Below are positions 204 through 61,261 of a DNA stretch of 64,000 nucleotides, in pieces. Every line of letters starts with the position of its first letter. The stretch's first letter is position 1. The translations under genes and the position numbers were made by a program. The DNA comes from Pseudogymnoascus verrucosus (lineage: Eukaryota), in the NCBI GenBank assembly GCA_001662655.1, contig KV460225.1. The stretch is one strand, 5' to 3'. Below the pieces are notes generated by a model. The model was not told the DNA's origin. It worked only from the letters and a program-made list of their open reading frames with translations, and ran no database searches.

Positions 204-2921
204 CTCAGGAATCAGCAAACGCGGGGAAGCGGTGAGTTAGCTGCTGCACAGCACTGCACTGGTGTATAGTACAGTAATTAGGGGAAGTTCAAAAGCATCA
301 ACCACCCGTTCATCCCAACGCCGCATGTGACGTCCCCTGACATCTCGGCGCATCGGCTTAGGCAAAAGCGTGTTTACGGCCTCTCTGCTTGGCATCTGCA
401 TGCCCTGCCCTGCCTGTCTTGTGGTGGTTCTCGGCTCAGTTGTAAAAAAAAACGTAACTGGATTAGGAGACACGTGATGTGTAATCTTAAAACCCCTCGT
501 AGGAGTGGAGAAGGGGGGATAAGGAGTTTCTTGATGGGGAGGGAGGTAATTTCGGTGGGTTTATGCGGAGGTGATGTGGTGTGTTGATAGGAGTTACTGT
601 GTGTAATGGATGAGAGGTGCACGGGGTGGGTGGTGGAATACTGGGGAGTGAGAGGGCTGTGAGAGAGGTGGTGGTGATACAGACCTCTACCCAGCTACGG
701 CTGGAGTAAGTCAAGACGACTTCACTACGCGTGTGCACAATGATCTACCACTATAATAGCCATGTCTCTCCAACCCGTCTCTCTGGTGATACACCACTAC
801 ACGCCACCACCACCACCCAGCTTCCAGCGATAGATCATCCTGTGTCTAGGAAGCCTAGTGTGTTTCCTCCTCGTATCTCGGACGGGCTGGACTGGTCGGT
901 AAGATGCGCATGAGTCGGTCTAATCGGGGGAAAGGGGGAAGGGGGTTAAGTGATCGGTTCCTAGGTTAGTGGTGATCGGGTTCCTGGGCCGTTTGGGGAT
1001 GGGGTAGAGTAGAGTGCTCATGGCGGTGGTGCGTATAACGGTTACGGTGCCGTAGAGTAGTTCACGTGAAAGTTGAGGAAGTGTGTATGGGGCGCATATG
1101 GGGGAGGGTAAATGTAGTGGAGAGAGGAGGCTGGATGGTGCAGTGGACAGAGACAAAAATAGGAATAACGGGCTGGCCTGGCCGGCTGCGTTGATCGTCA
1201 TCTCGTGTCAAACGGCGTGGCGGCCGTGGCGGAAAAGAAAAGAAAAAAACTCGTCTCCCGGCTGGAAAAATATTAAATTACCGGCCGCCTCGACTGAATA
1301 GGGGATGGGATTAGCTAGAACGGGAAATTAAGAGCACAGTTTTAGTAGTGTTAGTAGCCTAGTTATCGTACTATAGTAGAATAGTAGAGTAAGAAGGGCC
1401 ATCGGATTAGACCGTCTACTACCACCACGGTGTATCTAAATGTCTTGGCCTTGGGTCTGGGAAAAAAAGTCAATTTCCGAGACAAAATGTTTCTCCCTGT
1501 TGTTGTGGGCGAGCGATTAGGTAGAGAAAAGAAGCGGGATTTCCGTGTTTTGCGGTAGGCGGGAGATGTACGATGATGTGCGGGCTGTGCTGTGTATGTG
1601 TATGTGTATGTACTGTGAGCTGGCAGACTTCATGGGATTAGAGTTTGAGATATAATAGGAGAAGTGTCACGGGTTTAGGGAGGATCTTTTTTTAAGATGG
1701 CAGGCACAAGGGGTGAGGTGAGGCTTCTCCTTTTGGATAAACACCACACACGGACACGACAGACAGACAACCGTGAAAAAGACGTTAGAATAACTGTCTA
1801 TCGACCAACTATTTAGTACTGTAGCATAGAGTGGTGTACAGCGCATTAGCCTGTCGTTTTTCTACTAGGAACAGCCCAGTACTAACTCACAGGTCCACCC
1901 GTATTTCTGGTGTCGGCCGTCTCAAACTCCTCACTTTCCTAGCCACTGCTAACTAACTCTAGTTACTAGATGGTCGTTAGTGAGGTCTAGAGTGGTGGTT
2001 AGTGGCTCCGCCATCCATCGTTTTGTTCGATTTGTCTAGAGAAAGAGACATGTTAGATGGGCTAGAGGGGCTAGAGGGGAGGAGGAGGAACGGATAGGCG
2101 GTGGAGAGACAGTAGAGACACCAGAGACATGCTCTAGCCGCAGTCACGCCAGCCACCGCGATTCATGGGGAGTGGCGTGAGGAGAATGAGAGGAGAGTAC
2201 GCGGTATAGCACGTATAATGCACTGTGAGGCGGGCAAGGCGCTCAATCCGTATAGCACACGCGGCTGTACATTATAGTAGTGAGGTAGAAGAAGAAGGCT
2301 TAGCAGATACTGCATTGCATACTGTAGACTACAGGCTGTTAGCTATAGACTGCAGACGACTTGTAGGCATACAGCTAGCATAGCCTCTCTTTTGCCATTG
2401 ACAACGACTAATAATACGATTAAACCTCAATCTTCAATCTTCAATCTCCAATCTCGGAAACATCTAATTAACTATACTATAACTATAATTGCTATATTAT
2501 ACTTTACCATATTACCCTACACGGACCATCCCTTTCCCTCGCTTTTTCTTCTTGCCTTCCCTCTTTCTCCTACGCCTCTCCTACGCCAAGGTACAACCAC
2601 ATCGCACCACAGCTCTATACGATTTCCATGTACCACCCCGGACTCGGCTACCCACGTCCTCTCCCTCCTCCTCCACCACCCCCCAACCACCAACCACAAT
2701 CCTCCAACCACCAACTTACGCTACTAACAACGGACGTTCCCTGACCGACAACCACTCACCCCCAAAGACTCCCGATTCACCACTACCACTACCACCACCC
2801 AACGTCCCATCCGTGAAAGAAGAATCACCACCTCGACACAGCGACACAAACAACACACCTCACCCCCTCCGACCCGCGAACGACAAGGACTCCCATCCGG
2901 AGTCGGCTGGAAAACCCATCA

Positions 2922-4585
2922 ATGGCGTCAAGCAGCAGCAATGTCGTCGGTGTGCACTATCGCGTCGGGAAGAAGATTGGAGAGGGCTCCTTTGGTGTCA
3001 TATTCGAAGGCACCAACCTGTTGAACAACCAGCAGGTCGCCATCAAATTCGTACGTTTCACCCAACCCTTTCACCTCCATTGACTGTCGAGCATGGAGAG
3101 AGACGTGGACAGCAGGCACTGTCTATTAAAGGGCTTCACCGCTTCACCCACGAATTGATTGTAGCTGACGATTGTTTCAATCTTAGGAACCACGCAAGAG
3201 CGATGCTCCTCAGCTGCGTGACGAGTACCGGACGTACAAGATCTTGGTTGGATGCCGTGAGTACACCTCATCTTCGACAACACTCTGCCATGACTGACAA
3301 TGAAACAGCGGGCATTCCGAATGTCTACTACTTCGGCCAGGAGGGCCTCCACAACATCCTCGTTATCGACCTGTTAGGCCCCTCCCTCGAGGACCTCTTC
3401 GACCACTGCAATAGACGCTTCTCGATCAAGACTGTGGTTATGGTGGCAAAGCAGATGGTATGTACTTCCACCACACCGCCAACGCGTCAACCCCTAACCT
3501 TTTGCACAGCTGTCGAGAGTCCAAACGATCCACGAGAAGAACTTAATCTACAGAGACATCAAGCCAGACAACTTCCTGATTGGCAGGTCAGGCTCCAAGG
3601 CGGCCAATGTCATCCACGTTGTCGACTTCGGCATGGCCAAGCAATACCGCGACCCGAAGACGAAGCAGCACATCCCATACCGTGAGCGGAAATCTCTGTC
3701 TGGAACCGCACGTTACATGTCTATCAACACACATTTGGGACGCGAGCAATCACGCCGTGACGACCTGGAGGCCCTCGGACATGTGTTCATGTACTTCCTC
3801 CGCGGCGGACTACCATGGCAAGGTCTGAAGGCTGCCACCAACAAGCAAAAGTACGAGAAGATCGGTGAGAAGAAGCAGACCACGCCCATCCCCGAGCTCT
3901 GCAACGGCTTCCCGGAGGAGCTCAACAAGTACCTCAGCTACGTGCGCAACCTCGGCTTCGAGGACACCCCCGACTACGACTACCTGCGCGACCTCTTCAC
4001 GCAAGCCCTCAAGGGTTCCGGCGAGATCGAAGACGGCGAGTACGACTGGATGAAGCTCAACAACGGCAAGGGCTGGGAGGCAACCAAACAGCACCAGTCC
4101 CAGCATTTAATGCACCAAGCCAACGTCGCGCAGGGCGCCTCGAACCGCGAGCTCCACGGCACGACGCGCGCGACGGGCTCGACACCGGGCCACCTCACCG
4201 CCGCCCGTTTAAACGCCGCGCAGCCCCCGCCCCCCTCGCCCGCCAAGGCCGGGCTGGGGAAGATGCGCGACCAGCCAAGCGGGCCAGGCAGGCTGGCGCC
4301 GAAGCGCGCGAGCGGCGCGGCGGGGCACGGGGGCGAGCTGACGCCGGCGGGGTCGACGCAGGCCCAGTTCCAGAACTCGAGCAATAACCTCCCGCAGAGG
4401 ATGGTGCAGCAGCCGAATATGGTTGCGCAGCAGATGGGGAATGGAAGGGTGGAGGAGGAGGCGCAGCCGCAGGGGTTCCAGAAGTTTTTGAAGACGATAT
4501 GTTGCAGTACGTATATTCCCCGTTCCGTTGGCGGTGGGCCGGAAGACAAGGTGCAGTGACAGTGACTAACTAGACAACAGGATGA
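2922..4585 (+). CDS. Casein kinase I, membrane-anchored Yck1/2/Cki1 type; 5 exons
   Basis: Spliced protein begins [28 protein letters not shown] and contains [17 protein letters not shown] and [20 protein letters not shown] introns start near 3051, 3257, 3458 and 4507. Spliced C-terminus is TICCR-stop with a Cys-Cys lipidation motif. Confidence 0.95.
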
Positions 4586-42046: not shown

Positions 42047-43815
42047 TTAAATATTTGGAACAGTATCCGATATTGCAGTACCCTCGAATGCGTGTCGAAG
42101 GCGGATATCATAATCCTCTCTATCTGACATTTTCTTCATCCCGACTTTAACGTAGTCTTCTGCCCAGTACCATGGCATAATCAGTTCGAAATTGTCATGA
42201 CCCGTAGTATGCATAATGAACCTAGGTTGGATCTGTTTGTAGAATAGTCGAAAAATACCTGTTGGGCTGGCAAGGGCAAGCGTATACCAAAATATTCCCT
42301 TATCCCAGTTCAGCTTCATTGCAGCTGACAGCAGCGGCTTCCCATCGTAATTACAAGAGGCGGGACTTTGAGCTTGTTCCTCTTCCGCCGTGAATTTGTC
42401 CATAAATTCTGCCCGGACCTTATCATACTCTTCGTGCCCTTCCTCAGCAATCTCATCGCAAGCCTTGCTCGTGAGCCAGGTCGGAGTCCGAAACATATCT
42501 AGTGGCCGGGTGCTTGCCCACTCAAGATCCACAAGTGAGGTGATGTTCCAGTTTTTATCAACGAAGAGGTTGCTCTGGTGAAGATCCGTTAAGGTGAAAA
42601 GAAAAGGTCCACGGCGACATTCCCACTTAAAAAATGATGGCAGTACTGTCCTCATTGCCGTTAACGCTGATGTCTAATAGATATAATCACCTACACCCTT
42701 TATTGCGTTTAGCTGATGTCGTAGTCGATTATCATGGATGCTAATGATACTCATCGCGTATGAATCCGCTGTAGAATAAGTCTAGTCTTGGGGTATATCT
42801 GTCGGAATTTCCTCGTTTTCTAGCTCGAAAATTTCAACACTGGCCTATTTGCCAAGCGCAAGAACCCGTCACGGTCAATTATGAAAGATCTAATTTTAGG
42901 TAGGGGAGTCCGTGCCATACTGAGCATTATCCAGGAGAGATCGTGAAAGAGGTTGTTGCGTAGCCTACTGTCATCCCGCTTTTCCTGAAGATATGCATAG
43001 GCGCCTGCCTCACATCGAATCTTTTCGTCTCCATTCCCAGGCCGAAAGGCTTCCCCAACACGATATGGGAGAGGAAATCTAATTAGAACACGCCGTCCAG
43101 GCTGTTCCTTCCCTTCCCAGGGGCTAATTGTGACTGGAATGCAAACATTGAAGCTACTTGTTCCCCTCCCCCCTCCAGTATGTGCATCTCGGTTGAGAAT
43201 CCGTTCGCTCATCGAACGCTCATAAATCCCCTACGTCTAACCTATCGCAAAAGAGAACAGAGTCCACACAGCTAATGTAGAAGAATTTTATACCGTCAAA
43301 CCGCCATCACCATCCGGCCGTCAGTCAAGCACACACCACCATATAACCCTTCCCCAACCTAGAACTTCCACATACGACCATAGACTCAAGAGAATTGGGC
43401 ATCCCGTCCGCTCTGCCATACACAAGCTTGAGATCGGTGGATTAGTAGTTGGGTGGGTGACCACCAGCGAATACCCACTGTTGTATGTTATTTTTGTCAT
43501 TTTTGTCATTTTTGCCCCCCACCAGGGGGGAAGCTGTAACAATGACGGATAGAGGTTAGGTGATGGGATTACTTGGGATTTTTTGTGCCAACATGACGTT
43601 TGGGTCTTAACATCAGCTACCTGGCATAAAGTAGGCAACCTTAGATTTAGGTGATGCGCAACGATAGCTTTAATCCAACTGCGCTTGTTGTTAATGTGGT
43701 TAAAGAATTTGACTTCTTCGGCTGGATATCGTAGGCGATGAAGGATATTGACCTCTTCATCTTTAGCAGTCGAGTATGTGATCTCTCCACGAGAAAGAGG
43801 CAATGCCCTCGGCAT
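42047..43815 (-). pseudogene. APH/phosphotransferase-like kinase pseudogene split by a 5S-containing insertion
   Basis: 5' part ends near CQVADVKT (~43604) and resumes at SFNVCIPV..IRFPLPYRVGE..DEKIRCEAG (~43157). DLHQSNLFVD..LVDLEWA kinase-like motif. In-frame TAG stops at 42782-42784 and 42674-42676, plus a frameshift. Confidence 0.85.
43370..43488 (+). rRNA. 5S rRNA, intact
   Basis: 119 nt ACATACGACCATAG...CTGTTGTATGT with paired termini, a T-run terminator after it, and TATA-like ATATAA about 30 nt upstream. Confidence 0.96.
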
Positions 43816-45386: not shown

Positions 45387-45784
45387 GGCCGGCTAAAGAA
45401 TTTGTCGAAAGGCCGGTGGTTGTTGATGAGGTCGCGATCGGGATCAAACAAGAAGGGAATCAATTTTGCGAAATTCGTGTGTGTGCTCGCATTTTGCGCT
45501 AGTTGTGGGAATAAGCGAGCCAAATTTCGGAGCTAATGTTGTGGGCTAGTGGTGGATTTGGTAAGGGCTGAAAAGAAATGACTAAGCAAAATAGTGGGTA
45601 GCTCTTTCCACTTTGGTTTTTCCGTCGTGACTATGGGGATATTTGAGATATTTTGGCAATTTTAGATAGGAAGGCAATTGAGAGTCCAGGATATTTGAGA
45701 GGATACCTTACTTTCAGTAATTTCTTATAAATCAAACTGGTTTGCCTATTGGAGTGATTTTAGACAGAGTAATTTAGTCACTTT

Positions 45785-45820
45785 ACGCGCTTGGAGTCGC
45801 TTAACGCGTCTCGTCGCGTC
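45785..45820. promoter_or_regulatory. MCB-like (ACGCGT) element cluster upstream of CTF8
   Basis: ACGCGT at 45804-45809 flanked by ACGCG and CGCGT partial sites. MBF control of S-phase genes is established in fungi. Confidence 0.55.
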
Positions 45821-45955
45821 CAACTATATCAAGAGGCACAGCAATTATAACCAGATCCACAAAGTTATAGCACATGTTCATCTTGTATATTCTCAGAATA
45901 AAATGATATAATTCAATTTCAAAGAAGAAACAGATAAGCTCAAAAATCCGCAAAA

Positions 45956-46444
45956 ATGGCTACGAAAGTGGCCCTCTACCCGTCACCAAAAGCCCTCGAG
46001 AAGCCCTTGGAGAATCCATTACCCCAGCTACTCCAGACACCATCCGGGCTTGCTCTGCTAGAGATGCAGGGGACGATCAACACACCCTCTCCTCCTACTC
46101 AAGATGAAGACGACGAGTCAAACCAGCCGGGAAGCTATGAAACACCAATCGGGCGCCTTGTCTTCCCAGACTACGAGCCAGGGACATCAGAAGGCGGAGC
46201 GTGGCAGAAACGCGTCTATCTCTATGTAGGCATGCATCAGCGTCTCACGGGAGAGGTCAAGAAACTTTCAAAAGCTATTGCTATTATTCGGAAACGTGCG
46301 CCGTCTGAAACCGAGAACACTTCGAAGGAGGGGCAGGGCGTTGAAGAGCTGGAGATTGTGGAGATTGTGAAGTGGAAGATCATCTTCTCGAACCGGCCAG
46401 AACCAGTGGGGACTGCTGTTGTGGACGTTGTTGTTGACGCTTGA
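45956..46444 (+). CDS. CTF8: Chromosome transmission fidelity protein 8
   Basis: LALLEMQGTI, YLYVGMHQRLTGEVKKL, and IVKWKIIFSNRPEPV. Confidence 0.9.
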   Translation: MATKVALYPSPKALEKPLENPLPQLLQTPSGLALLEMQGTINTPSPPTQDEDDESNQPGSYETPIGRLVFPDYEPGTSEGGAWQKRVYLYVGMHQRLTGEVKKLSKAIAIIRKRAPSETENTSKEGQGVEELEIVEIVKWKIIFSNRPEPVGTAVVDVVVDA

Positions 46445-46937
46445 GAGACGTTCTTGCAGGTGGATTTTACGCCAAAGAATGGATATCAGGGCAGCTGTAT
46501 TCAGTAAGGGTCGTGGTACCCTAACGCATCAGCTGAGGGCAAAGGGTGGCTCAGGTATCAAGCACGCTTGCAATGCGAATTACGGTGGCAATACGCGCTG
46601 CAACTTCATGCAAAGAATAGGTCGCGCCGCTGCCTTTAGCCACATGGCAGCAGTTCTTGAGTGGCTAGGGAAAGGAATGCCTTGGGAAGTGCCACAGGCG
46701 TATCTCTTGTGAAATAGATTGATGGGCTTGGTATCAGTGGTGTAGAAAGAAAAATATTGTCAATATACCCTTGAATTATTTGAATTAATTATATATGCCT
46801 GCTTTATCTACCGTATTTTGTAATTGTGAGCGAAAAAGATAAATGATACCCCACCTCCCCAAATCCCCCACCGTCCGGTCACAACACATCACAGCACAGC
46901 ATGGCAGTATTAAGTTCCCGACATACACATAATAATC

Positions 46938-47056
46938 ACATACGACCATAGACTCAAGAGAATTGGGCATCCCGTCCGCTCTGCCATACACAAGCTTGAG
47001 ATCGGTGGATTAGTAGTTGGGTGGGTGACCACCAGCGAATACCCACTGTTGTATGT
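46938..47056 (+). rRNA. 5S rRNA, intact
   Basis: Identical to the copy at 43370-43488 and followed by a TTTT terminator. Confidence 0.96.
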
Positions 47057-47138
47057 TTTTGCCTTTATTTTCCTTTTTTTGCTGTGTAATTTTGTAGTGT
47101 GCAGGCGGTATTTATACTTGTTGGGAGTAATCATCGTC

Positions 47139-47218
47139 ACAGTAAATACAGTAAATAGAGTATATAGATCAAATATTTTTACTACACTATCCTACAGGCC
47201 TACGTATTCTACTTATAG
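47139..47218 (+). repeat. ~80-bp motif, copy 1, shared with 52841-52918
   Basis: ACAGTAAATACAGTAAATAGAGTATATAGATCAA...CTACAGGCCTACGTA..TAG. Confidence 0.8.
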
Positions 47219-48199
47219 GCCGAACCCCGCACGGAAGAGAGGAGAGGCAGCGTTCAGTCTTCGTATCAATACAGGATTCTACGTAATAGCCCAAAGCCCC
47301 GTGACCCCCTACTGCCCTGTTCATATTGAAGATCCTTACAGCTGCACCACCGGCAATTCTGACCCATTTGGGAGTCGGACTTTGCGCCGGAGAAACCTTC
47401 GGTTTCAGGGTCAATAGCCCACTGTACCCCAGCGCCCAAGTCCTTCTCCCTCCAAGAATACTTCGCGTACGACAAATAGCTAGTGACCCCTTGGTATGCA
47501 TTCATCGAAAGGTAGAACTTGGGGTGTTGATGTGGTGGGTCATGGAGTTGGGCACAGATATTACCGGAGAGGCCCGCGATGCATAAGCGCCGCTGAATTA
47601 ATATAGCCAATGACGAGGTACGATAGCAAGCCAACAAGAGCGACTGGACAGGACTCAAGGACAGACAAATAATTGGTTTCATTTTGTCTCATGCTGTGAT
47701 TCAAATAACTACGAATAGCGCTTGCTCGTAAGTACTAATGGGACATAAGTGCCAGAGATGTCCTACGAGGAGTTGGAAGGGTCTAGCCATAGTCTATAGC
47801 TCCTTCTGTGCTTTATTTAGCATTACAGAAAGCAACTCCATCCATCTTTAAGTGGTTGCTTTAACACCAATAGCCCACTTAAGTTGGATTATAGGCGCCA
47901 ACTGATACTACCCACTTAAACAACTTGCATGGATCGCGCATTTTTCCTATCGCTACATGCAGTATGCTCCGTACTAGGTAAGTCTCTGTTGGAGTAGGGG
48001 GGCGAACTGGTGTTACAGCTGACCCCTCCTTCTACATGTTGGTTGGGGGCCAATCTCGCCATATCAACGTCTGCCGTGCAATATGAAGGTGTTGGAAACC
48101 TCCATCTTTTGTTGCATTTGCGAATATCACAGCCATATATTGCTGCACAGATTTCCAACGACGAAGTCCTTTCTGGACAGCCCACTTTGCACTTGAAAC

Positions 48200-51100
48200 A
48201 TGTCCAATTCCTTTCCAGAACGCAAGATATTACCCGTAAGGTCAAGAAGAAGCCTTGGAAGGGAACGACGAAGCGTTTCGAATAGCGACCAAGGTCAACT
48301 TTCAACACCACCGATTTTTGGAAATCCTCTGCGCATCACGCAACCTCCAGAGATCTCGCCTGCTTCTGATAACCTCTCTCCACCAGTGTCTCTAGAGCAT
48401 GAGATCTTGCCTATGCGATTGAGAAGGAGCCTTGATCAGGCGGGAGAGCGACAAGATCCTATTTCAACATTGGGGGCTTCCGCAAATTCCCAGCGTGTCG
48501 AGCGAACTATAGAAGTCGCCCCAGCTTCTAGCGACCTCTCTCCACCGAGATCTGACTCTGCGGTTGCATCTAATGTCACACCTAGCAATGCAGGATTTCT
48601 CTCTTCTAGTTATGAGGGTAACGACTTCGCTTTTAAAGGCCTTGACTTTGGAAGACAGCCCACTCTCCAGCTCGATGCAATGAGACCCTCACCAATTCCG
48701 GACTCACAGACTCGGTCTAGCGATCTGTCTTTGCCAATTCTGTCCGGGCTCGAACCAGAGGACCCTCAGTCTTTGCATATCTTGTTTTCTGACGAAAAGA
48801 TAGCTGTTTCTACTGAGAACGAGGGTCTCGGAATGCCAATACCTGTTTTACTCAATGGGGACTCGGCTTCCGCTGAGTGTGGCCCATCGACTCCGCCGCG
48901 GAGGCGGACTTCTCTCTTTAGTCAAATGTCAGAGCTAGGTACAAGTCCATCCCTGTACCCACACCAGCGAAGTGTATCGGTCTCTTCTAGTATAAGCGAT
49001 GTCAGCTATTACAACGATCCCACTAGCCCTTATGATGTCGGAAGTGAGGAGCCGCCATTGGAACCCTTCTTCGCCTCACCTTTTCAAACAGCGTTGCAAA
49101 AAGGACTTGATATTGCAAAGGATGCAGCCGACGCGATGGAGACGGCGGGGCAATCTCTAGTGGCAGGGGGCGATCTTCAAAGGCTAATTAATGATGCTAA
49201 GGAGTTGAGTACGTTTAAAAGCTCTGAAACGAGAACCATCGCCGTTCTAGGAGATTCGGGTGAAGGTAAGAATGAGCCGTTAAATTATGCTGCATAGGTC
49301 TGATATTCTTCTAGGAAAGAGTAGTCTCATTAACTCTCTTCTTCACTTTCCAAATATCGCTAAAACAGTAAGTACATATCTTATAACGGGCGTTTCTAAA
49401 TCTAAACCTAACAATCCGACAGGGAGATATTGGTGCAGCCTGTACTTCAGTTGTTACTGAATATAGGCAGAAGACAACGGACCATTTGGCGCCTATTACA
49501 ATTGAGGTTGAGTACCTCTCTATGGGCGAAATTGAAGATCTAATCAAGGAACTGGTCTGGAACTACCGCCAGATGTATCTTCCACACACTGAAGGTGATA
49601 GCGTTTCTGAAAATGAATACGCTACAATGCAACGCGAATCGGAACAAGCATGGTCCTCACTTGAGGCAGGATTTAGCCACCAGCCTAGCTTTAACAAAGC
49701 TATGCTTATAAATGATATATCCGAAGCTGGGCTGTCTATAGCGAATAGCCAATTAGTTCAATGGGCGTATGAGCTTAATTGGCCAGATAGTGGAGAGAAT
49801 GGAAAGTGGACATCAACAGCAGATACTGCAGATGAATGTTGTGAGAAGACAAGTGTATTTATGGAAGATAGGTTTTGGCCATTTACAAAAATCATCCGGT
49901 AAAGTTTTCCATCATACTCTATCATTTATTAGCCTCTAATTGAGTATCGATAGTGTTTATCTTCAAGCAGACGTCTTAAAGACTGGTATTATTCTTGCCG
50001 ACTTGCCAGGTTTGTAGCTTAGGTTTGTAAATGCAGTCACAGATTAACTAACAAAACATATAGGTCTACATGATACAAATCTAGCAAGAGTAAAAGCAAC
50101 GCAGGACTATCTTTTAAGATGCAACTATATCTTCATCGTTGCAAAGATCTCTCGAGCAATCACAGATCAGTCATTGAAATCATCCCTCTATTCTATCTTA
50201 TCTCGGCATGCTGAGTTGGAATGGGAGGAGTCCGCTGGGAAAAGCATGAAAGTTGCTGTTGTCTGCACTAAGTCAGAGGTTGTAGTCTACTACAAAATTA
50301 AATTTAGAGGGTATGGCTTACACATAACTAGGATATTAATGTGAAGGCGGCACGACAAGAGTTTTGTGGCCCAAACAAGAGCATACCACAAGGAGTGATG
50401 ACGAAACTTGATGAAGATATCAAGGAAGCAAAAGCGCAGCGCAATAAAGCCCTTAAGAAACACTTAAAGCGAAAGTATGAAAGACTGGGTATGCTTGAGA
50501 CTAGACTACTAACCTTTTTATAGGCAACAATTGCTTCTTATTAGCGCTCGCAATACGCACGTTAAAGAAGGTCTACAGCGGGCCTATTCCTCAAAGGTCC
50601 CGAATGGAGGGCTAGAGGTATTTTGCGTCTCTAACACAACATACGGGAAGTATACAATAAAGGGTAATGTTGAAATGGTTCAAGCTAGTGGTATACCAGA
50701 GCTTCGACGATTCTGCTACACCATGACCGCCCATGCGCAGTTACTTGAAGCAAGGCATTTCCTTTCTTCAATGTTGTCGAGTCTTCTAAATTCAGCTGAG
50801 CTTTTAGCGACTAAACCTACAGAATCTCAACAACCCACAGAGACTGGGTTAGACGAATCTATGCTTCTCGCCGTTAATAATGGAAAAACGGAGGTTAGTC
50901 ATATTATTTATTCGATATTGAGGTCGGCTAACCTTCGGAGACATTGAGGGCAGTCTCTCAGTCCAAAAGCGAATTCCAGGACACCTTTCGGGAGCTGGTT
51001 CTTATGCTTCTAGGTGAGTTTGTTTAAAGCTGTTGTAGGTTAAGGGGCTACCTGCCTAACTTTATTCAAGACAAGCAAAGCGAGGTTTGGGAAACTGTGG

Positions 51101-52198
51101 CGAAACAAAATAGTGCAAGTTGGAACAATGTAATATCCATCTCTCATTCACAGCAGTCCGAATTCTAACTCAGCATAGTGGCATTGGAGTAATGTCTCTA
51201 AATAGTGCACAACTTTATGTACACAGGCTGATTTAGCTCGTGTAGCTCAGTATAATGCCTGGTGCAGACACGATGGTTACCACTACACGGAAAAGCGGGG
51301 GAAAGTCAATTGGAACGCTGAACTCATCTGGAAAATGAGGATGGAGATGGCATTCCAATGGGAGACATTAGAAGAAGACATTCCAACGCTGTTTAAAGAT
51401 TTGTTACAGTCCGCTAAAGCACCGCTACTGGCCTTGCAGTCAGAGATGAGAGGTAAGTTGATAGAGATTAGTTTTCTGCGGTAAAATAGCTGACATTCTA
51501 GTGAAGAAAAATGCTTCAGCCCTTTGCTCGTTGAAGGAATTGACTTCAGAATTCAAAGTTTGACATATAGATGCAGTCTAGCAGAGCAGAATTTTGCAAA
51601 GGAAGTCAAGTAAGTTTTATTGTGCCCTTGCAAACTTCGATACCTCTTAAAGCCTCGCTTGGCCAAGGACCCTTTACTTACACCAACGAGGATTACTCGC
51701 AGTAAAGCATCAGAGCCGAATGAATCCTCCTATATTTTCGCAGAGATGGTTCCAGCTTACCGATCAGCAGCCAATGAATATGGTGAGTATACCTACCCAG
51801 GTAGACTATTAAGACACTATTATCATCTAAATCGACTTCAACCTTATGCTGATGTCTCTTTTGTGGCAGGCACCGGCAAAGCAGCTCGTCAACGAAATAC
51901 CGTGCAAGGACGAATCACGAACGGCACCTTATTTCCCAACATCTCGACGGCGATAAAGCGGGAAATTGAAACCGCGGCCAAGACAACTTTCGATAGCGTA
52001 CTGAAATCATTAGAGTCAGACTTTGCTTTAATTGAGAACGATGTTACGATGGCGTTGGCTTCTGCGCCGCAGCAGTCTGGCGACAGAGAGGACGTGGCCT
52101 GCGAAGAGGAGGAAAGACGGAGAGGAGAGTTGGCTGGTGCAGTAAGGGGCCTCAAGAGACAGCACGCCGAAGTACTTGCGAGCATTGCAGATATATGA
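48200..52198 (+). CDS. Dynamin-like / SLIP-GC-like P-loop GTPase, many exons
   Basis: Spliced G1 IAVLGDSGEGKSSLINSLL; GAACTSVVTEY; FWPFTKIIRVY; G3 LADLPGLHDTN; G4-like VVCTKSE; SGIPELRRFC; YNAWCRHDG..WNAELIWKMR. Long low-complexity N-terminus, so the start is uncertain. Confidence 0.85.
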
Positions 52199-52552
52199 AC
52201 GCGAGAGCAAATAGCTAGATAGCATTTATATCACGATTATTTTATTTTATTATATAACGTGACGTATGGGTATCTCGCGCATATAGGGATCTCGCGCACT
52301 TTACCCTACTACCTTAGCTTCTAACTCTTATTACTACTAACCATGGGCTATAAACGTGAAACTCCTGAGGCCTATTCTAAAGATGATATACAAAAGGCAA
52401 TAACAAGCTGGAAAGAGAAAAAATTCCGATTTATTCTTGCTACTGCCTGCGGGAGTGTTTAGACCTCGCTGTCTCCCTGCATACTGTACCATGTTTCTAC
52501 ATGTGTTGTCCACGTAATCGTGGTTATAATGTGGTATGGGTAGTAATCTACC

Positions 52553-52613
52553 ACATACGACCATAGACTCAAGAGAATTGGGCATCCCGTCCGCTCTGCC
52601 ATACACAAGCTTG
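52553..52613 (+). pseudogene. Truncated 5S rRNA (nt 1-61 only)
   Basis: Identical to the other 5S copies through ...CACAAGCTTG and then diverges. The 3' half is absent from the rest of the window. Confidence 0.92.
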
Positions 52614-52840
52614 TAGTTCAGTGGATCGATGCTCTCAATCGTGCCAATAGGCATAGCGTGGAATCTGAGCCACGTAAACTGAGCCCCAAAAAAGTGCAGA
52701 GGTGCCACATCAAGACCACAAGTAGCTACAGCAGGTGTGTTGGGGGGAGGACCGGAATACGGGGACCACCACACGAATTGTGCAGTGTCTTCGATGGCCG
52801 GAACTTCTTCACTTTGGCGCAACAGAACAGAAGGCTTCAA

Positions 52841-52918
52841 ACAGTAAATACGGTATATAGAATCTATAGATCAATTGAATTACTACCTAATCTACGGGCC
52901 TACGTACGCTATTTGTAG
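52841..52918 (+). repeat. ~80-bp motif, copy 2
   Basis: ACAGTAAATACGGTATATAGAATCTATAGATCAA...CTACGGGCCTACGTA..TAG. Confidence 0.8.
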
Positions 52919-53008
52919 TCCTGGGGGAATCCCCCAAAACCCTGACAAGCTGAGCTCTCCGGGCTCAGCTGGGTTAGGATCAGTGGCTCCCAATAGTATG
53001 GCGCCACT

Positions 53009-53104
53009 GTTACGCGGGTGAAGAAAAAAGTGGCACGGTTTACTGCCAGAAATATACCAGAAATGTGCCAAGACCCGTGCCACTTATTGCTTCAACCGCG
53101 TAAC
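53009..53104. repeat. 30-bp imperfect inverted repeat (27/30) with a 36-nt spacer
   Basis: GTTACGCGGGTGAAGAAAAAAGTGGCACGG at 53009-53038 versus the reverse complement of 53075-53104, GTTACGCGGTTGAAGCAATAAGTGGCACGG. Confidence 0.9.
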
Positions 53105-53932
53105 TGTCTCACCCGTAGGTCAGCTGGGGAGCTGGACGGTCCGACGGGAATAACCCGTTATTTTGGGCGTAAAAGCCCACCGTATCCCAGCGGGAATGTC
53201 CGTTTCCCCCAACAAGGTGACTACATTGTGAAGTTCACGTGATTTGGAGATTTGGGGAAGGAACCGCCTACCTACTCTGTGCCCCTGAATCTGTGCCAAG
53301 CGTTCAGCTTGACGGAGTGGGCCCAATTGGGCTTCGATGTCTCACAGTTACGTCGCGGTTCTGAGTGTCACGCTGATGACGAATGAGGACATGATGCCCA
53401 AAAGTATCCTTTTGGTCGAAAGTGATCCTGAGGGCGAGTCAGCCAACACAGTTGTGCAGGTCACTTTCTCCTATAGGAAATCTTTGCTACGATCTCTCAC
53501 ATCGGTGAGATTTCTTATTGGCTTCTTGCCAGCCATATTTATACCAAGTCAGCGATATAATTCCCATTAACCCAATTGCATTCGGGCGGCTTATCGATCT
53601 CGAAAACTAACCCGATTCAAATTTCCGAAGTGAGACAGGCTTGAAGGAATGCCTCCGCCGAGATGGATGAACAGAAGGAATCTCAAGGAAATATCGTGAT
53701 GACCCATCATGAATTACAAACAAAGAGAAAAGGCGCGAGATGAAGATCCTATTACTGTAGAACAAATCCAATAAATAGTATAAAGCTCGACTTGCAACAA
53801 GATCTTCAGCAACCAAACGATATTAAACATTCCCCTCACAGCTCCCCACGTACAACTCCTCAAGGACAGCTTCTCCAGCTCATCGAGCTCCTCAAGCTCA
53901 GACCATATCAGTTATCAATCAAGTGATCAAAC

Positions 53933-54584
53933 ATGTCCTCAATCGTCGCAGTCATCGGTACTTCAAGGGGCATTGGACTCGAGCTCGTCAAGGAACTTTC
54001 GCTATCCGCAAACACCCGAACTCCATCCCCTGAGTCCCATCTGAAGGACGACGACATCAAAATGATCGCTCTCGACATGACAGATGACGCCTCCGTCATA
54101 GCCGCAGCCATGAATGTTCGTGAACTCGATACTCTCATCATTAACGCACCCATTGGAAACGACGATCATCTCCAAAGTCTCTCCTCTCTCGACTTCATCT
54201 CTTACCTGAACACCAATGTGGTCGGACGCGTTATCCGCGCATTCCTCCCCGCCTTACTTGTTCGCAACACACGTCAGATCGTAATTACCTCACCAGAAGC
54301 TGGATCCCACCAACTGCAAATCGGCTCAACATTTGGTCTTGTAGGGCCTTTCGGAGCCTCGAAAGTAGCAGTGAACATGCTCGCTGTGTAGTGATCACAA
54401 TGAGTTGAAAGATGAAAGATTCACTGTTGTTCCGATGGGTAGGGACAGATATCGGGAACGTTATGGGGGATAGTGGCATACCAGTGCAGACGTCGACAGG
54501 CGCTATGTTAGCGCTATTTAAGGATTAAAGCCACAGGACAGTATAACGTTTCTCAACTACGATGGAAATATCATCCCATGGTAG
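53933..54584 (+). pseudogene. Short-chain dehydrogenase (CsgA/C-factor-like) pseudogene
   Basis: GTSRGIGLELV Rossmann motif. Catalytic YxxxK reads FGASK. Premature TAG at 54389-54391. The remaining HNELKDERFTVVP / GWVGTD / FLNYDGNIIPW-stop is broken by frameshifts or stops. Confidence 0.8.
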
Positions 54585-60370: not shown

Positions 60371-61261
60371 TGTACGAGCATCCACACAATGGAACGTGGA
60401 CATCCATGCGTTTCGCGAGTGTCAATCGCGACAACACCAACATTACCTACAGAGTAGATAGAATATACCATAACTAAACAATGCTTAACATGCTTCTAAG
60501 TCCTGTGAAGACTTCTCGACATGGCAAGATTACGACTCCGACTCGTGAAAAAGCGATTGGAATGTTACGAGCCAGGCAATCTTGTCGCAAAGTTTCTGTT
60601 GCGCTCGGCTTATCAAAGCCGAGTGTGTATAACATCGCGACAAACCCAAGCTCTTCTAGGCCTAGAAAGCAACGACAGGGCCGGAAAGAGCATTGGATGA
60701 GCGAGATCGTCTACTTCCAATGGGCAACCAAAAAAAAAGGACTCCCGGTAGTTTAATTGGGCAGAACTACAACGACAAAGTGAGCTGCGTGGAAGTGCTG
60801 AAACCAATTGAATGTCGCGTCAACGCGGTTTGTGATGCGCTCGGCGATGTGTTGATGGTGTATCGGTGGCTACGTTGTTCCGTCGTAGGTTGTGTTCTCG
60901 GTATATAAATGGGTACTTATTCCTTTAGATTTCATTTTGAAGCTGGTTGAGAGCCGTTTTAGAAAGAAGCTTGAGATTGTCGAGTTCTTTCTTGAGATCC
61001 GTTTGAGACTTGAGAAAAACTTACACCAGTGTGTGTATACCGGACTTCGCCTCAGAGGATTCAAGCTTGCAAAGACCACAAAAGGCATGGCAACGGAATT
61101 CTAGACATAGGAAATGTATTGTATTATAGTTGTCTATATATGTACTTATTTATATAGCTATGTGAATCGTTGTTGTTGAATCATTCTTAATTGAAACCTA
61201 GTACTTGTCGTGGTCCTCCGTTTTGGTCCGGCAACTGCGCCCTTGTGTGCATGCTCGTACA
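60371..61261 (+). mobile_element. Internally deleted Tc1/mariner-like transposon
   Basis: Terminal inverted repeat TGTACGAGCATCCACACAA (60371-60389) matches 61243-61261 at 18/19; the TA within it on each side may be the target duplication. HTH remnant TREKAIGMLRARQSCRKVSVALGLSKPSVYNI and C-terminal-like RVNAVCDALG. No intact DDE core. Confidence 0.75.

Follow-up and report, generated by a model that had tools for sequence, protein, structure and literature searches.

The question raised by this locus is what kind of genetic element carries a conserved motif of about 80 bp that occurs twice, downstream of two different 5S rRNA-type sequences, in the stretch of DNA of 64,000 nucleotides analysed here (the window). 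In Pezizomycotina, dispersed 5S genes are known landing sites of Starship elements, and a first-pass annotation of this DNA had read the motif as a conserved subterminal module of a family of 5S-associated elements, such as a recombinase-binding site or a promoter for a structured RNA. Our main reading is one of ordinary repeat annotation: units A and B, in which the two copies lie, are probably solo LTRs that one lineage of LTR retrotransposons left behind in two independent insertions, the motif being their AT-rich core, and two old solo LTRs would account for the apparent 5S-associated signal. A solo LTR is the single LTR that remains after recombination between two LTRs, the interior of the element being lost.

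In a blastn comparison of the window with itself, copy A (47139-47221) and copy B (52841-52921) are 78.3% identical over 83 columns (E 4.8e-12). Both blastn and nhmmer place the two copies where they had been described and in the same orientation, which is also that of the adjoining 5S sequences, and the reported association with 5S holds, both copies in the window lying beside 5S-type sequence. The distances from the end of the 5S sequence to the motif, previously given as 83 and 228 bp, measure 81 bp (A) and 226 bp (B). The ~80-bp motif is real, but it is not the full extent of the similarity, as a second colinear block is also homologous (47370-47458 versus 53127-53215, 68% over 91 columns, E 3.6e-5 in blastn). 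A two-copy nhmmer profile, of the kind proposed in the annotation, was run on the 64-kb window and six metagenome loci and returned just the two known copies, with no third one.

These segments belong to two longer units, 76% identical over 315 aligned pairs, whose ends were fixed by the homology between A and B and were not picked to suit the flanking repeats; the boundaries bear out the idea of a module placed close to an end of a mobile-element unit that is repeated. The features of the first locus are listed here, with plus for LTR A denoting the window strand and making no call on the sense strand of the retroelement:

46938-47057, plus strand: intact 5S rRNA gene (Rfam RF00001, 74.2 bits, full model 1-120), undamaged by insertion A
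47114-47118, no strand: target-site duplication ATACT of unit A, left copy (identical 5-mer at 47458-47462)
47119-47457, plus strand: probable solo LTR A, 339 bp, TGTTGGGAG...CTCCCTCCAAGA, ends set by homology with B and by the 5-bp repeat
47139-47221, plus strand: motif copy A, AT-rich core of the probable LTR A, with TATATA at 47161 and a GC content of 0.31 versus 0.54 in the rest of the LTR
47370-47457, plus strand: second conserved block, 3' part of the probable LTR A; the blastn match extends to 47458, 1 base past the unit
47458-47462, no strand: target-site duplication ATACT of unit A, right copy, matching the left one

Unit A begins 61 bp past the end of the 5S gene, its first base lying 181 bp after the first base of that gene. 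It starts with TGTTGG and ends with CCAAGA: the TG start is present and the end is one base off CA. A leftward extension of the unit was considered and rejected, since the similarity of 47058-47118 to the 5' part of LTR B was not significant. In the four genomes compared (X1, X2, X3 and X7) contig depth hardly rises over the A-type 3' part, and for this reason unit A is regarded as a diverged relative. The second locus is arranged as follows:

52553-52737, plus strand: left part of the "5S-head" repeat, host of insertion B, with 5S nucleotides 1-62 at 52553-52614 followed by non-5S sequence
52733-52737, no strand: target-site duplication AGGTG of unit B, left copy (identical 5-mer at 53215-53219)
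52738-53214, plus strand: probable solo LTR B of 477 bp, TGTTGGGGGG...CCCCCAACA, whose terminal inverted repeats match perfectly over 9 bp
52841-52921, plus strand: motif copy B, AT-rich core of the probable LTR B, with TATATA at 52854 and a GC content of 0.36 versus 0.55
53009-53107, no strand: ~99-bp foldback nested in the probable LTR B (self-complementary match 53006-53107; DNA fold z -5.2)
53127-53214, plus strand: second conserved block, 3' part of the probable LTR B; pieces of other contigs cover 53103-53214
53215-53219, no strand: target-site duplication AGGTG of unit B, right copy, matching the left one
53220-53262, plus strand: right part of the 5S-head repeat, resuming past insertion B; 53221-53262 is 88% identical to positions 368-409 of metagenome locus L003

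Unit B starts with TGTTGG and ends with CCAACA, and it begins 185 bp downstream of the point where the 5S head starts. Its termini (TGTTGGGGG and CCCCCAACA) are complementary at 9 of 9 positions, and the similarity fades after ~20 bp. The 5-bp direct repeats flanking the units are perfect (5/5) and different from each other, ATACT in A and AGGTG in B; the background rate of 5-bp flank identity at these spacings is ~0.0011 per site. The signature TGT...ACA plus a 5-bp repeat is weak alone, because a generic scan finds 28 candidates in the 64-kb window, and the case stands on the homology-defined ends and on the empty site.

The 5S-head repeat is 93.7% identical, from 52545 to 52671, to positions 23-149 of L003, and up to 52671 it is common to 7-12 other contigs per genome. 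An exact empty site for B, joining 52732 to 53215, is found in one paralogous contig each of the related genomes X1 and X2, and the 482 bp that it skips equal the 477-bp LTR plus one copy of the 5-bp repeat. Nearly the same skips occur in other paralogous 5S-head contigs (52671 to 53220, 52722 to 53227 and 52713 to 53216), including those of X7 (52692 to 53215 and 52714 to 53230), and in L003 the 5S head and what follows 53220 are present but unit B is lacking. Each of the four genomes compared has the B-type unit on several further contigs. The summed contig depth over 52724-53024, not to be taken as a copy number, exceeds that of the flanks 5- to 16-fold (2353 versus ~220 in X1, 597 versus ~45 in X2, 448 versus ~37 in X3 and 1126 versus ~200 in X7), and a variant at 52957 is present on 5, 7, 5 and 4 distinct contigs in the runs of the four genomes. 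The foldback is missing from other LTR copies, in which contigs join 53008 to 53128 (with 22 other letters) or 53010 to 53160. Pattern scans for further copies gave 0 matches in the metagenomes (motif pattern) and in the viral contigs (motif and block-3 patterns). In X7, contig cover is absent over 53326-54500 with no bridging contig, a hole that proves nothing.

Boundaries, target duplications, terminal inverted repeats, multi-copy status and, for B, the empty site are observed at these loci. The solo-LTR class is read from the unit ends, the duplications, the multi-copy status and the empty site, and we infer an LTR-retrotransposon origin rather than another integrase-type element. The terminus TGTTG conforms to TGTNR, the pattern of Gypsy LTR ends (PMC2836005), and fungal solo LTRs with flanking 5-bp duplications are described as usual (PMC10886601). 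Fungal solo LTRs (Ty3/gypsy, Ty1/copia and TRIMs) resemble the units in their TG...CA-type TGTNR ends and short inverted repeats, as well as in the 5-bp duplication, the size (339-477 bp here), the dispersed multi-copy occurrence and the precise empty site (PMC2836005, PMC10886601); unlike them, unit A ends in GA and the units are seen here without interior, PBS and PPT. The GA, and not CA, at the end of unit A speaks against a solo LTR, and so does the finding of an empty site for B but none for A; nor did the DNA covered here show a full-length element with paired LTRs, a primer-binding site (PBS), a polypurine tract (PPT) or gag-pol genes. The same is true of the motif's position, as it would come ~20-100 bp after the 5' end and make for an unusually short U3. 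A known MITE or LTR was what the annotation itself had named as contrary to its proposal, and, with the solo-LTR anatomy and the empty-site joint, an LTR appears to be the case here, though not necessarily one of a family already described.

Each unit would derive from a separate integrase-mediated insertion that duplicated 5 bp of target, A entering 61 bp past the intact 5S gene and B entering a member of the 5S-head repeat, and the interior of each element would have been lost by LTR-LTR recombination, leaving a solo LTR. The motif is the most conserved internal segment of the two units, starting 21 bp inside A and 104 bp inside B, with TATATA conserved in both copies; six X3 contigs, which diverge from B before 52870, have in common a motif-like consensus containing TATA. 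Judging from its composition and conservation, the motif may have a regulatory role as the transcription-control core of the LTR, with the TATA/promoter acting in the 5' LTR and polyadenylation signals in the 3' LTR, and such a role would explain why it has diverged less than the remainder of the LTR. Of the functions suggested previously, that of a promoter is plausible in view of the AT-rich island and the conserved TATATA, while a structured RNA is not indicated by Rfam or by folding; "promoter" is itself an inference, because the sense strand of the LTR is not established.

We give almost no credence to the alternative that the motif belongs to a gene for a structured non-coding RNA or acts as the promoter of such a gene. 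The hairpin-rich sequence said to follow both copies is found after B, where it is strongly hairpin-forming (52915-53260, z -8.75), but not after A (47222-47457, z -0.54), and much of the folding signal of B comes from the 99-bp foldback missing from other copies. The motif itself folds no better than shuffled sequences (z -0.46 and +0.93), and the small stem GGCCTA..TAG(G/T)CC noted at its end can be written in both copies but is absent from the minimum-energy fold of copy B. The best Rfam matches at both loci (E 0.28-0.5) are far below the gathering thresholds, at which a scan of the window returned two intact 5S genes and nothing else; the window contains no tRNA genes. It is also very improbable that 5S, spacer, motif and block 3 form one unit, either an LTR that carries a 5S-derived sequence, like those of Cassandra and Ajax, or a segmental duplication that took in a 5S gene and the DNA downstream of it. 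The two loci do agree in their order (5S start, then motif, then block 3), and TRIM LTRs with 5S-derived sequence occur in plants and nemerteans (PMC10886601). However, the DNA between 5S nucleotide 62 and the motif is unrelated between the two loci, the upstream similarity being reached by 263 of 2000 shuffles and by 599 of 2922 pieces of the window, and in X2, X3 and X7 the intact-5S contigs (8 or 9) continue after 47060 into poorly agreeing T-rich sequence. Moreover, the blastn matches to 5S (46937-47078 and 52548-52626) fall outside both units and their duplications, and 5S-head copies without the unit occur. The units are like the Cassandra and Ajax TRIMs in being LTR-type elements tied to 5S sequence with 5-bp duplications (PMC10886601), and unlike them in that the 5S lies outside the LTR and the duplication and the LTRs have no similarity to 5S in blastn.

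The solo-LTR reading has also to be weighed against DNA-based elements. An origin of the units as MITE-like, non-autonomous DNA transposons that move by cut-and-paste, from an integrase-related superfamily with TG...CA ends and short duplications such as Ginger2/TDD, seems improbable to us: short terminal inverted repeats and 5-bp duplications are present, duplications of 5 bp are also known from TDD-4 and TDD-5, TGTNR describes the termini of Ginger (PMC2836005), and the units are seen without a retrotransposon interior; but Ginger inverted repeats measure 40-270 bp, with mostly 4-bp duplications, and the same source, in the part cited here, gives one vestige of Ginger in fungi (PMC2836005). 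At 9 bp in B, and less pronounced in A, the inverted repeat found here does not reach 40-270 bp, and the size range and internal variability of the units suit LTRs. A pogo-like transposase relic considered at 52343-52459 was without Pfam support. The proposal of the first-pass annotation, a subterminal recombinase-binding module of giant 5S-targeting Starships, has a very slight chance of being right. In Aspergillus, Starships of the Enterprise family break up 5S rDNA by inserting into it (PMC11162782, PMC12153272), and here accessory-type genes (SDR, ABC transporter, 2OG oxygenase) come after a 5S fragment (52553-52614); a broken 5S copy adjoining accessory genes is a trait in common with the Enterprise-family and Osiris navis Starships (PMC11162782, PMC12153272). 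In contrast to these, the units that contain the motif are small (<0.5 kb) and bounded, each with a target duplication of its own, unit B is precisely absent from 5S-head paralogs, and copy A follows an intact 5S gene, so the motif is not at an element boundary in a split 5S. The 32 frames scanned with Pfam (27 + 5; the window has 131 frames of at least 110 aa) contain no DUF3435 captain or other recombinase domain, in a window whose right end is 11 kb from the 5S fragment, beyond which a distant captain is possible; HTH matches at 60481-60753 were below the Pfam threshold. In the starfish tables examined, the 5S words around the break occur in no direct or inverted repeat, and no "5S" labels are present (PMC11162782). 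As the core of a probable solo LTR, the motif is therefore removed from the evidence for Starship ends.

What is noteworthy is that the insertions, though independent, flanked by different duplicated targets and set in unrelated DNA, start at +181 and +185 bp from the 5S start in the same orientation (n = 2). The RNA polymerase III machinery might have directed them to this offset, which is seen in two cases. We consider it possible, though doubtful, that this LTR lineage of a filamentous ascomycete integrates ~180 bp downstream of where 5S genes, and repeats derived from 5S, begin; either the Pol III factors at 5S (TFIIIA/TFIIIC/TFIIIB) or a nucleosome positioned behind them would then act as the guide. 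No such unit was found at the third 5S gene of the window or at 5S loci of other organisms (L002, L003, L004-L006), and a metagenome scan with a 5S 23-mer gave 6 loci, 0 of 6 with the motif or the LTR. Ty1, Ty3 and Tj1 integrate upstream of Pol III genes, including 5S genes, whereas in dictyostelids Skipper-2 inserts 8-23 or ~140 bp downstream of tRNA genes and TRE3 40-150 bp downstream (PMC5911963). The insertions studied here are like those of Pol III-targeting retrotransposons in their nearness to the 5S start, near-equal offset and shared orientation (PMC5911963), and unlike them in that n = 2 and that the 5S fragment hosting B lacks box C and may or may not be transcribed by Pol III. According to a 2018 review (PMC5911963), retrotransposon insertion downstream of Pol III genes had so far been described in dictyostelids only. 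A literature search turned up no LTR element reported next to a 5S gene in a filamentous fungus, although such a report may exist. If true genome-wide, the pattern would amount to Pol III-directed, downstream-specific integration in Pezizomycotina and would bear on how 5S loci turn into hotspots of structural variation. Reports of 1986-1991 are said to describe 5S pseudogenes with a conserved 3' block in Aspergillus nidulans.

The two copies of an approximately 80-bp motif, reported by the first-pass annotation downstream of two different 5S loci, are present in the window at 47139-47221 (copy A) and 52841-52921 (copy B), and align in a self-search of the window with 78.3% identity over 83 columns (E 4.8e-12); a profile built from both copies has no other match, either elsewhere in the window or in the six metagenome loci scanned with it. 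The gap between 5S and motif measures 81 bp for copy A and 226 bp for copy B. The homology extends beyond the stretch first noticed, with a second colinear block at 47370-47458 and 53127-53215 (68% identity, 91 columns, E 3.6e-5), and by extending it outward the ends of two units, A and B, were set, which are 76% identical over 315 aligned pairs. The window is a segment of a fungal chromosome, with housekeeping genes as far as ~46.4 kb and accessory-looking genes right of 46.9 kb, and the features relevant here are the following:

Left of ~46.4 kb, housekeeping genes: tryptophan synthase, PRPP synthetase, ribosomal protein S6e, Ctf8
43370-43489, 5S rRNA gene, intact (Rfam)
46938-47057, 5S rRNA gene, intact (Rfam)
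Right of 46.9 kb, accessory-type genes: multi-exon gene with DUF7605 tail, short-chain dehydrogenase, PDR-type ABC transporter, 2OG oxygenase
47119-47457, unit A, 339 bp, start TGTTGGGAG, end CCAAGA
47114-47118 and 47458-47462, ATACT flanking unit A
52553-52614, 5S fragment, nt 1-62 only, third 5S locus of the window
52553-52737 and 53220-53262, 5S-head repeat, headed by the 5S fragment and interrupted by unit B
52738-53214, unit B, 477 bp, start TGTTGGGGG, end CCCCCAACA
52733-52737 and 53215-53219, AGGTG flanking unit B

The two ends of unit B form a perfect 9-bp inverted repeat, and two flanking 5-mers a given distance apart are identical by chance in ~0.0011 of cases in the window. In a generic scan of the 64 kb, 28 candidates, unit B included, combined TGT...ACA with a 5-bp repeat, so this signature is weak by itself and requires independent evidence. 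A leftward extension of unit A was tried and rejected: the upstream similarity lacks significance, the same score being reached by 263 of 2000 shuffles and by 599 of 2922 pieces of actual window sequence.

Logan contigs of four sequencing runs, X1 (probably the window's own source) and X2, X3 and X7 (labelled as other organisms), were aligned to 45500-54500 at 80% likeness. One X1 contig and one X2 contig join 52732 directly to 53215, and the 482 bp skipped are unit B (477 bp) plus one copy of AGGTG; this joint is the exact empty site of unit B, in a paralogous copy of the repeat around it. A near-identical interval is skipped by further contigs (52671 to 53220, 52722 to 53227 and 52713 to 53216), including two joints in X7 (52692 to 53215 and 52714 to 53230). 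No trace of unit B is found in L003, a locus retrieved from metagenomes with a 5S 23-mer, between the segments that match both its flanks (L003 23-149 versus 52545-52671, 93.7%; L003 368-409 versus 53221-53262, 88%).

Separate contigs cover 52857-53010 and 53103-53214 of unit B, and a variant at 52957 occurs on 5 (X1), 7 (X2), 5 (X3) and 4 (X7) distinct contigs, so in each of the four genomes the B-type unit is a repeat with dispersed copies. Depth over the flanks is that of a single contig (~220, 45, 37 and 200 in X1, X2, X3 and X7), and the summed depths, which are sums and not copy numbers, reach 2353, 597, 448 and 1126, respectively, in bin 52724-53024 and 1134, 280, 270 and 844 in bin 53025-53325. 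In X3, six contigs cease to align with B before 52870 and have in common, at that place, a TATA-bearing consensus resembling the motif, indicating that the 5' half of the motif is a family feature in a diverged form. Unit A is found in all four genomes, on contigs running from 47037/47063 to ~52580, with almost no extra depth at its 3' part, and is therefore related to the B-type family but diverged from it.

The anatomy is that of a solo LTR, judging from the combination of TG...CA-type ends with a short inverted repeat, the 5-bp duplication, the size of a few hundred bp, the dispersed copies and the precision of the empty site. Units A and B are thus probably two solo LTRs derived from an LTR retrotransposon. 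Their TGTTG terminus fits TGTNR, the pattern described for the termini of Gypsy LTRs in PMC2836005, and, according to PMC10886601, fungi commonly carry solo LTRs flanked by 5-bp duplications. The main rival is a DNA transposon of the Ginger/TDD type, whose termini are similar, but whose inverted repeats of 40-270 bp and mostly 4-bp duplications, as described in the same source (PMC2836005), do not fit the units found here. The first-pass annotation had read the motif as a conserved module of a mobile element beside 5S genes, and this is partly right; its readings as part of a Starship, a recombinase site or a structured RNA found no support. Starships targeting 5S are described in Aspergillus (PMC11162782, PMC12153272), but no support was found for tying the motif to them: the units are small insertions carrying their own duplications, no DUF3435 was found in the 32 of 131 long frames scanned (most of the other 99 being overlapping or opposite-strand frames), and no direct repeats match in the part of the starfish tables of PMC11162782 that was searched. 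The observation is real and its explanation ordinary, most likely two solo LTRs of a kind already known.

Measured from the first 5S base, LTR A starts 181 bp downstream at the intact gene and LTR B, in identical orientation, 185 bp downstream at the 5S head (52553-52614). The insertions are independent, given their different duplications, the unrelated DNA from 5S nt 62 to the LTR and the existence of paralogs without B. It is well known that some retrotransposons integrate at a fixed distance from Pol III genes. Integration downstream of such genes is described, as far as the account in PMC5911963 goes, for no elements but Skipper-2 and TRE3 of dictyostelids. No such LTR unit lies downstream of the remaining 5S gene of the window (43370-43489) or at 5S sequences from other organisms in the metagenome loci L002, L003 and L004-L006, which counts against an integration rule. 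Two cases in a transposon-rich region cannot separate targeting from coincidence, and targeted integration at a set 5S offset seems to us less likely than not.

Within each LTR the motif is an AT-rich island, with a GC content of 31% (A) and 36% (B) versus 54% and 55% in the remainder of the respective LTR, and both copies conserve TATATA, with AGTAAA words upstream of it. The motif may be the transcription-control core of the LTR, which would serve a 5' LTR as TATA/promoter and supply a 3' LTR with polyadenylation signals. While the elements were active, selection would then have let it diverge less than the variable middle of the LTR. Folding lends no support to the small stem proposed to close the motif (z -0.46 and +0.93), and the hairpin-rich sequence described after both copies holds after B (z -8.75) but not after A (z -0.54). 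Part of the hairpin richness in B is accounted for by a nearly perfectly self-complementary foldback of ~99 bp at 53009-53107 (DNA fold z -5.2). It is absent from other LTR copies (joints 53008 to 53128 and 53010 to 53160) and may be a miniature inverted-repeat insertion. In paralogous LTR copies, ~22 different letters occupy its place.

The 5S fragment that begins at 52553 has to be considered apart from the motif. The repeat that it heads starts with 5S nt 1-62, goes on with a conserved non-5S stretch of ~57 bp and then a variable body, and occurs on 7 (X1), 8 (X2), 12 (X3) and 7 (X7) other contigs, which share the sequence after 52671 among them and with L003, where a copy spans 23-409 (93.7% over 127 bp). 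Candidate identities for this repeat are a SINE-like element derived from 5S, a conserved boundary of a Starship or other element, or a classical family of truncated 5S pseudogenes, such as those known in filamentous fungi (PMC5555474, citing Rooney and Ward, 2005). Some contigs carry its units in tandem (joint 52671 to 52554), and on others its body comes after an intact 5S gene, with 36 letters between the two (47061 to 52634). L003 also holds a 382-aa open frame (1946-3091) that runs off the locus and looks by eye like a Tc1/mariner-type transposase.

The multi-exon gene between both LTRs (48197-52198, plus strand) has a C-terminal match to DUF7605 (E 3.5e-11) and, by eye, a P-loop-like motif, and shows few differences across all four genomes compared. 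Directly after the first 5S gene, at 43490-43515, a T-rich 9-mer is repeated three times in short tandem and, judged by eye, is a candidate for stacked Pol III terminators.
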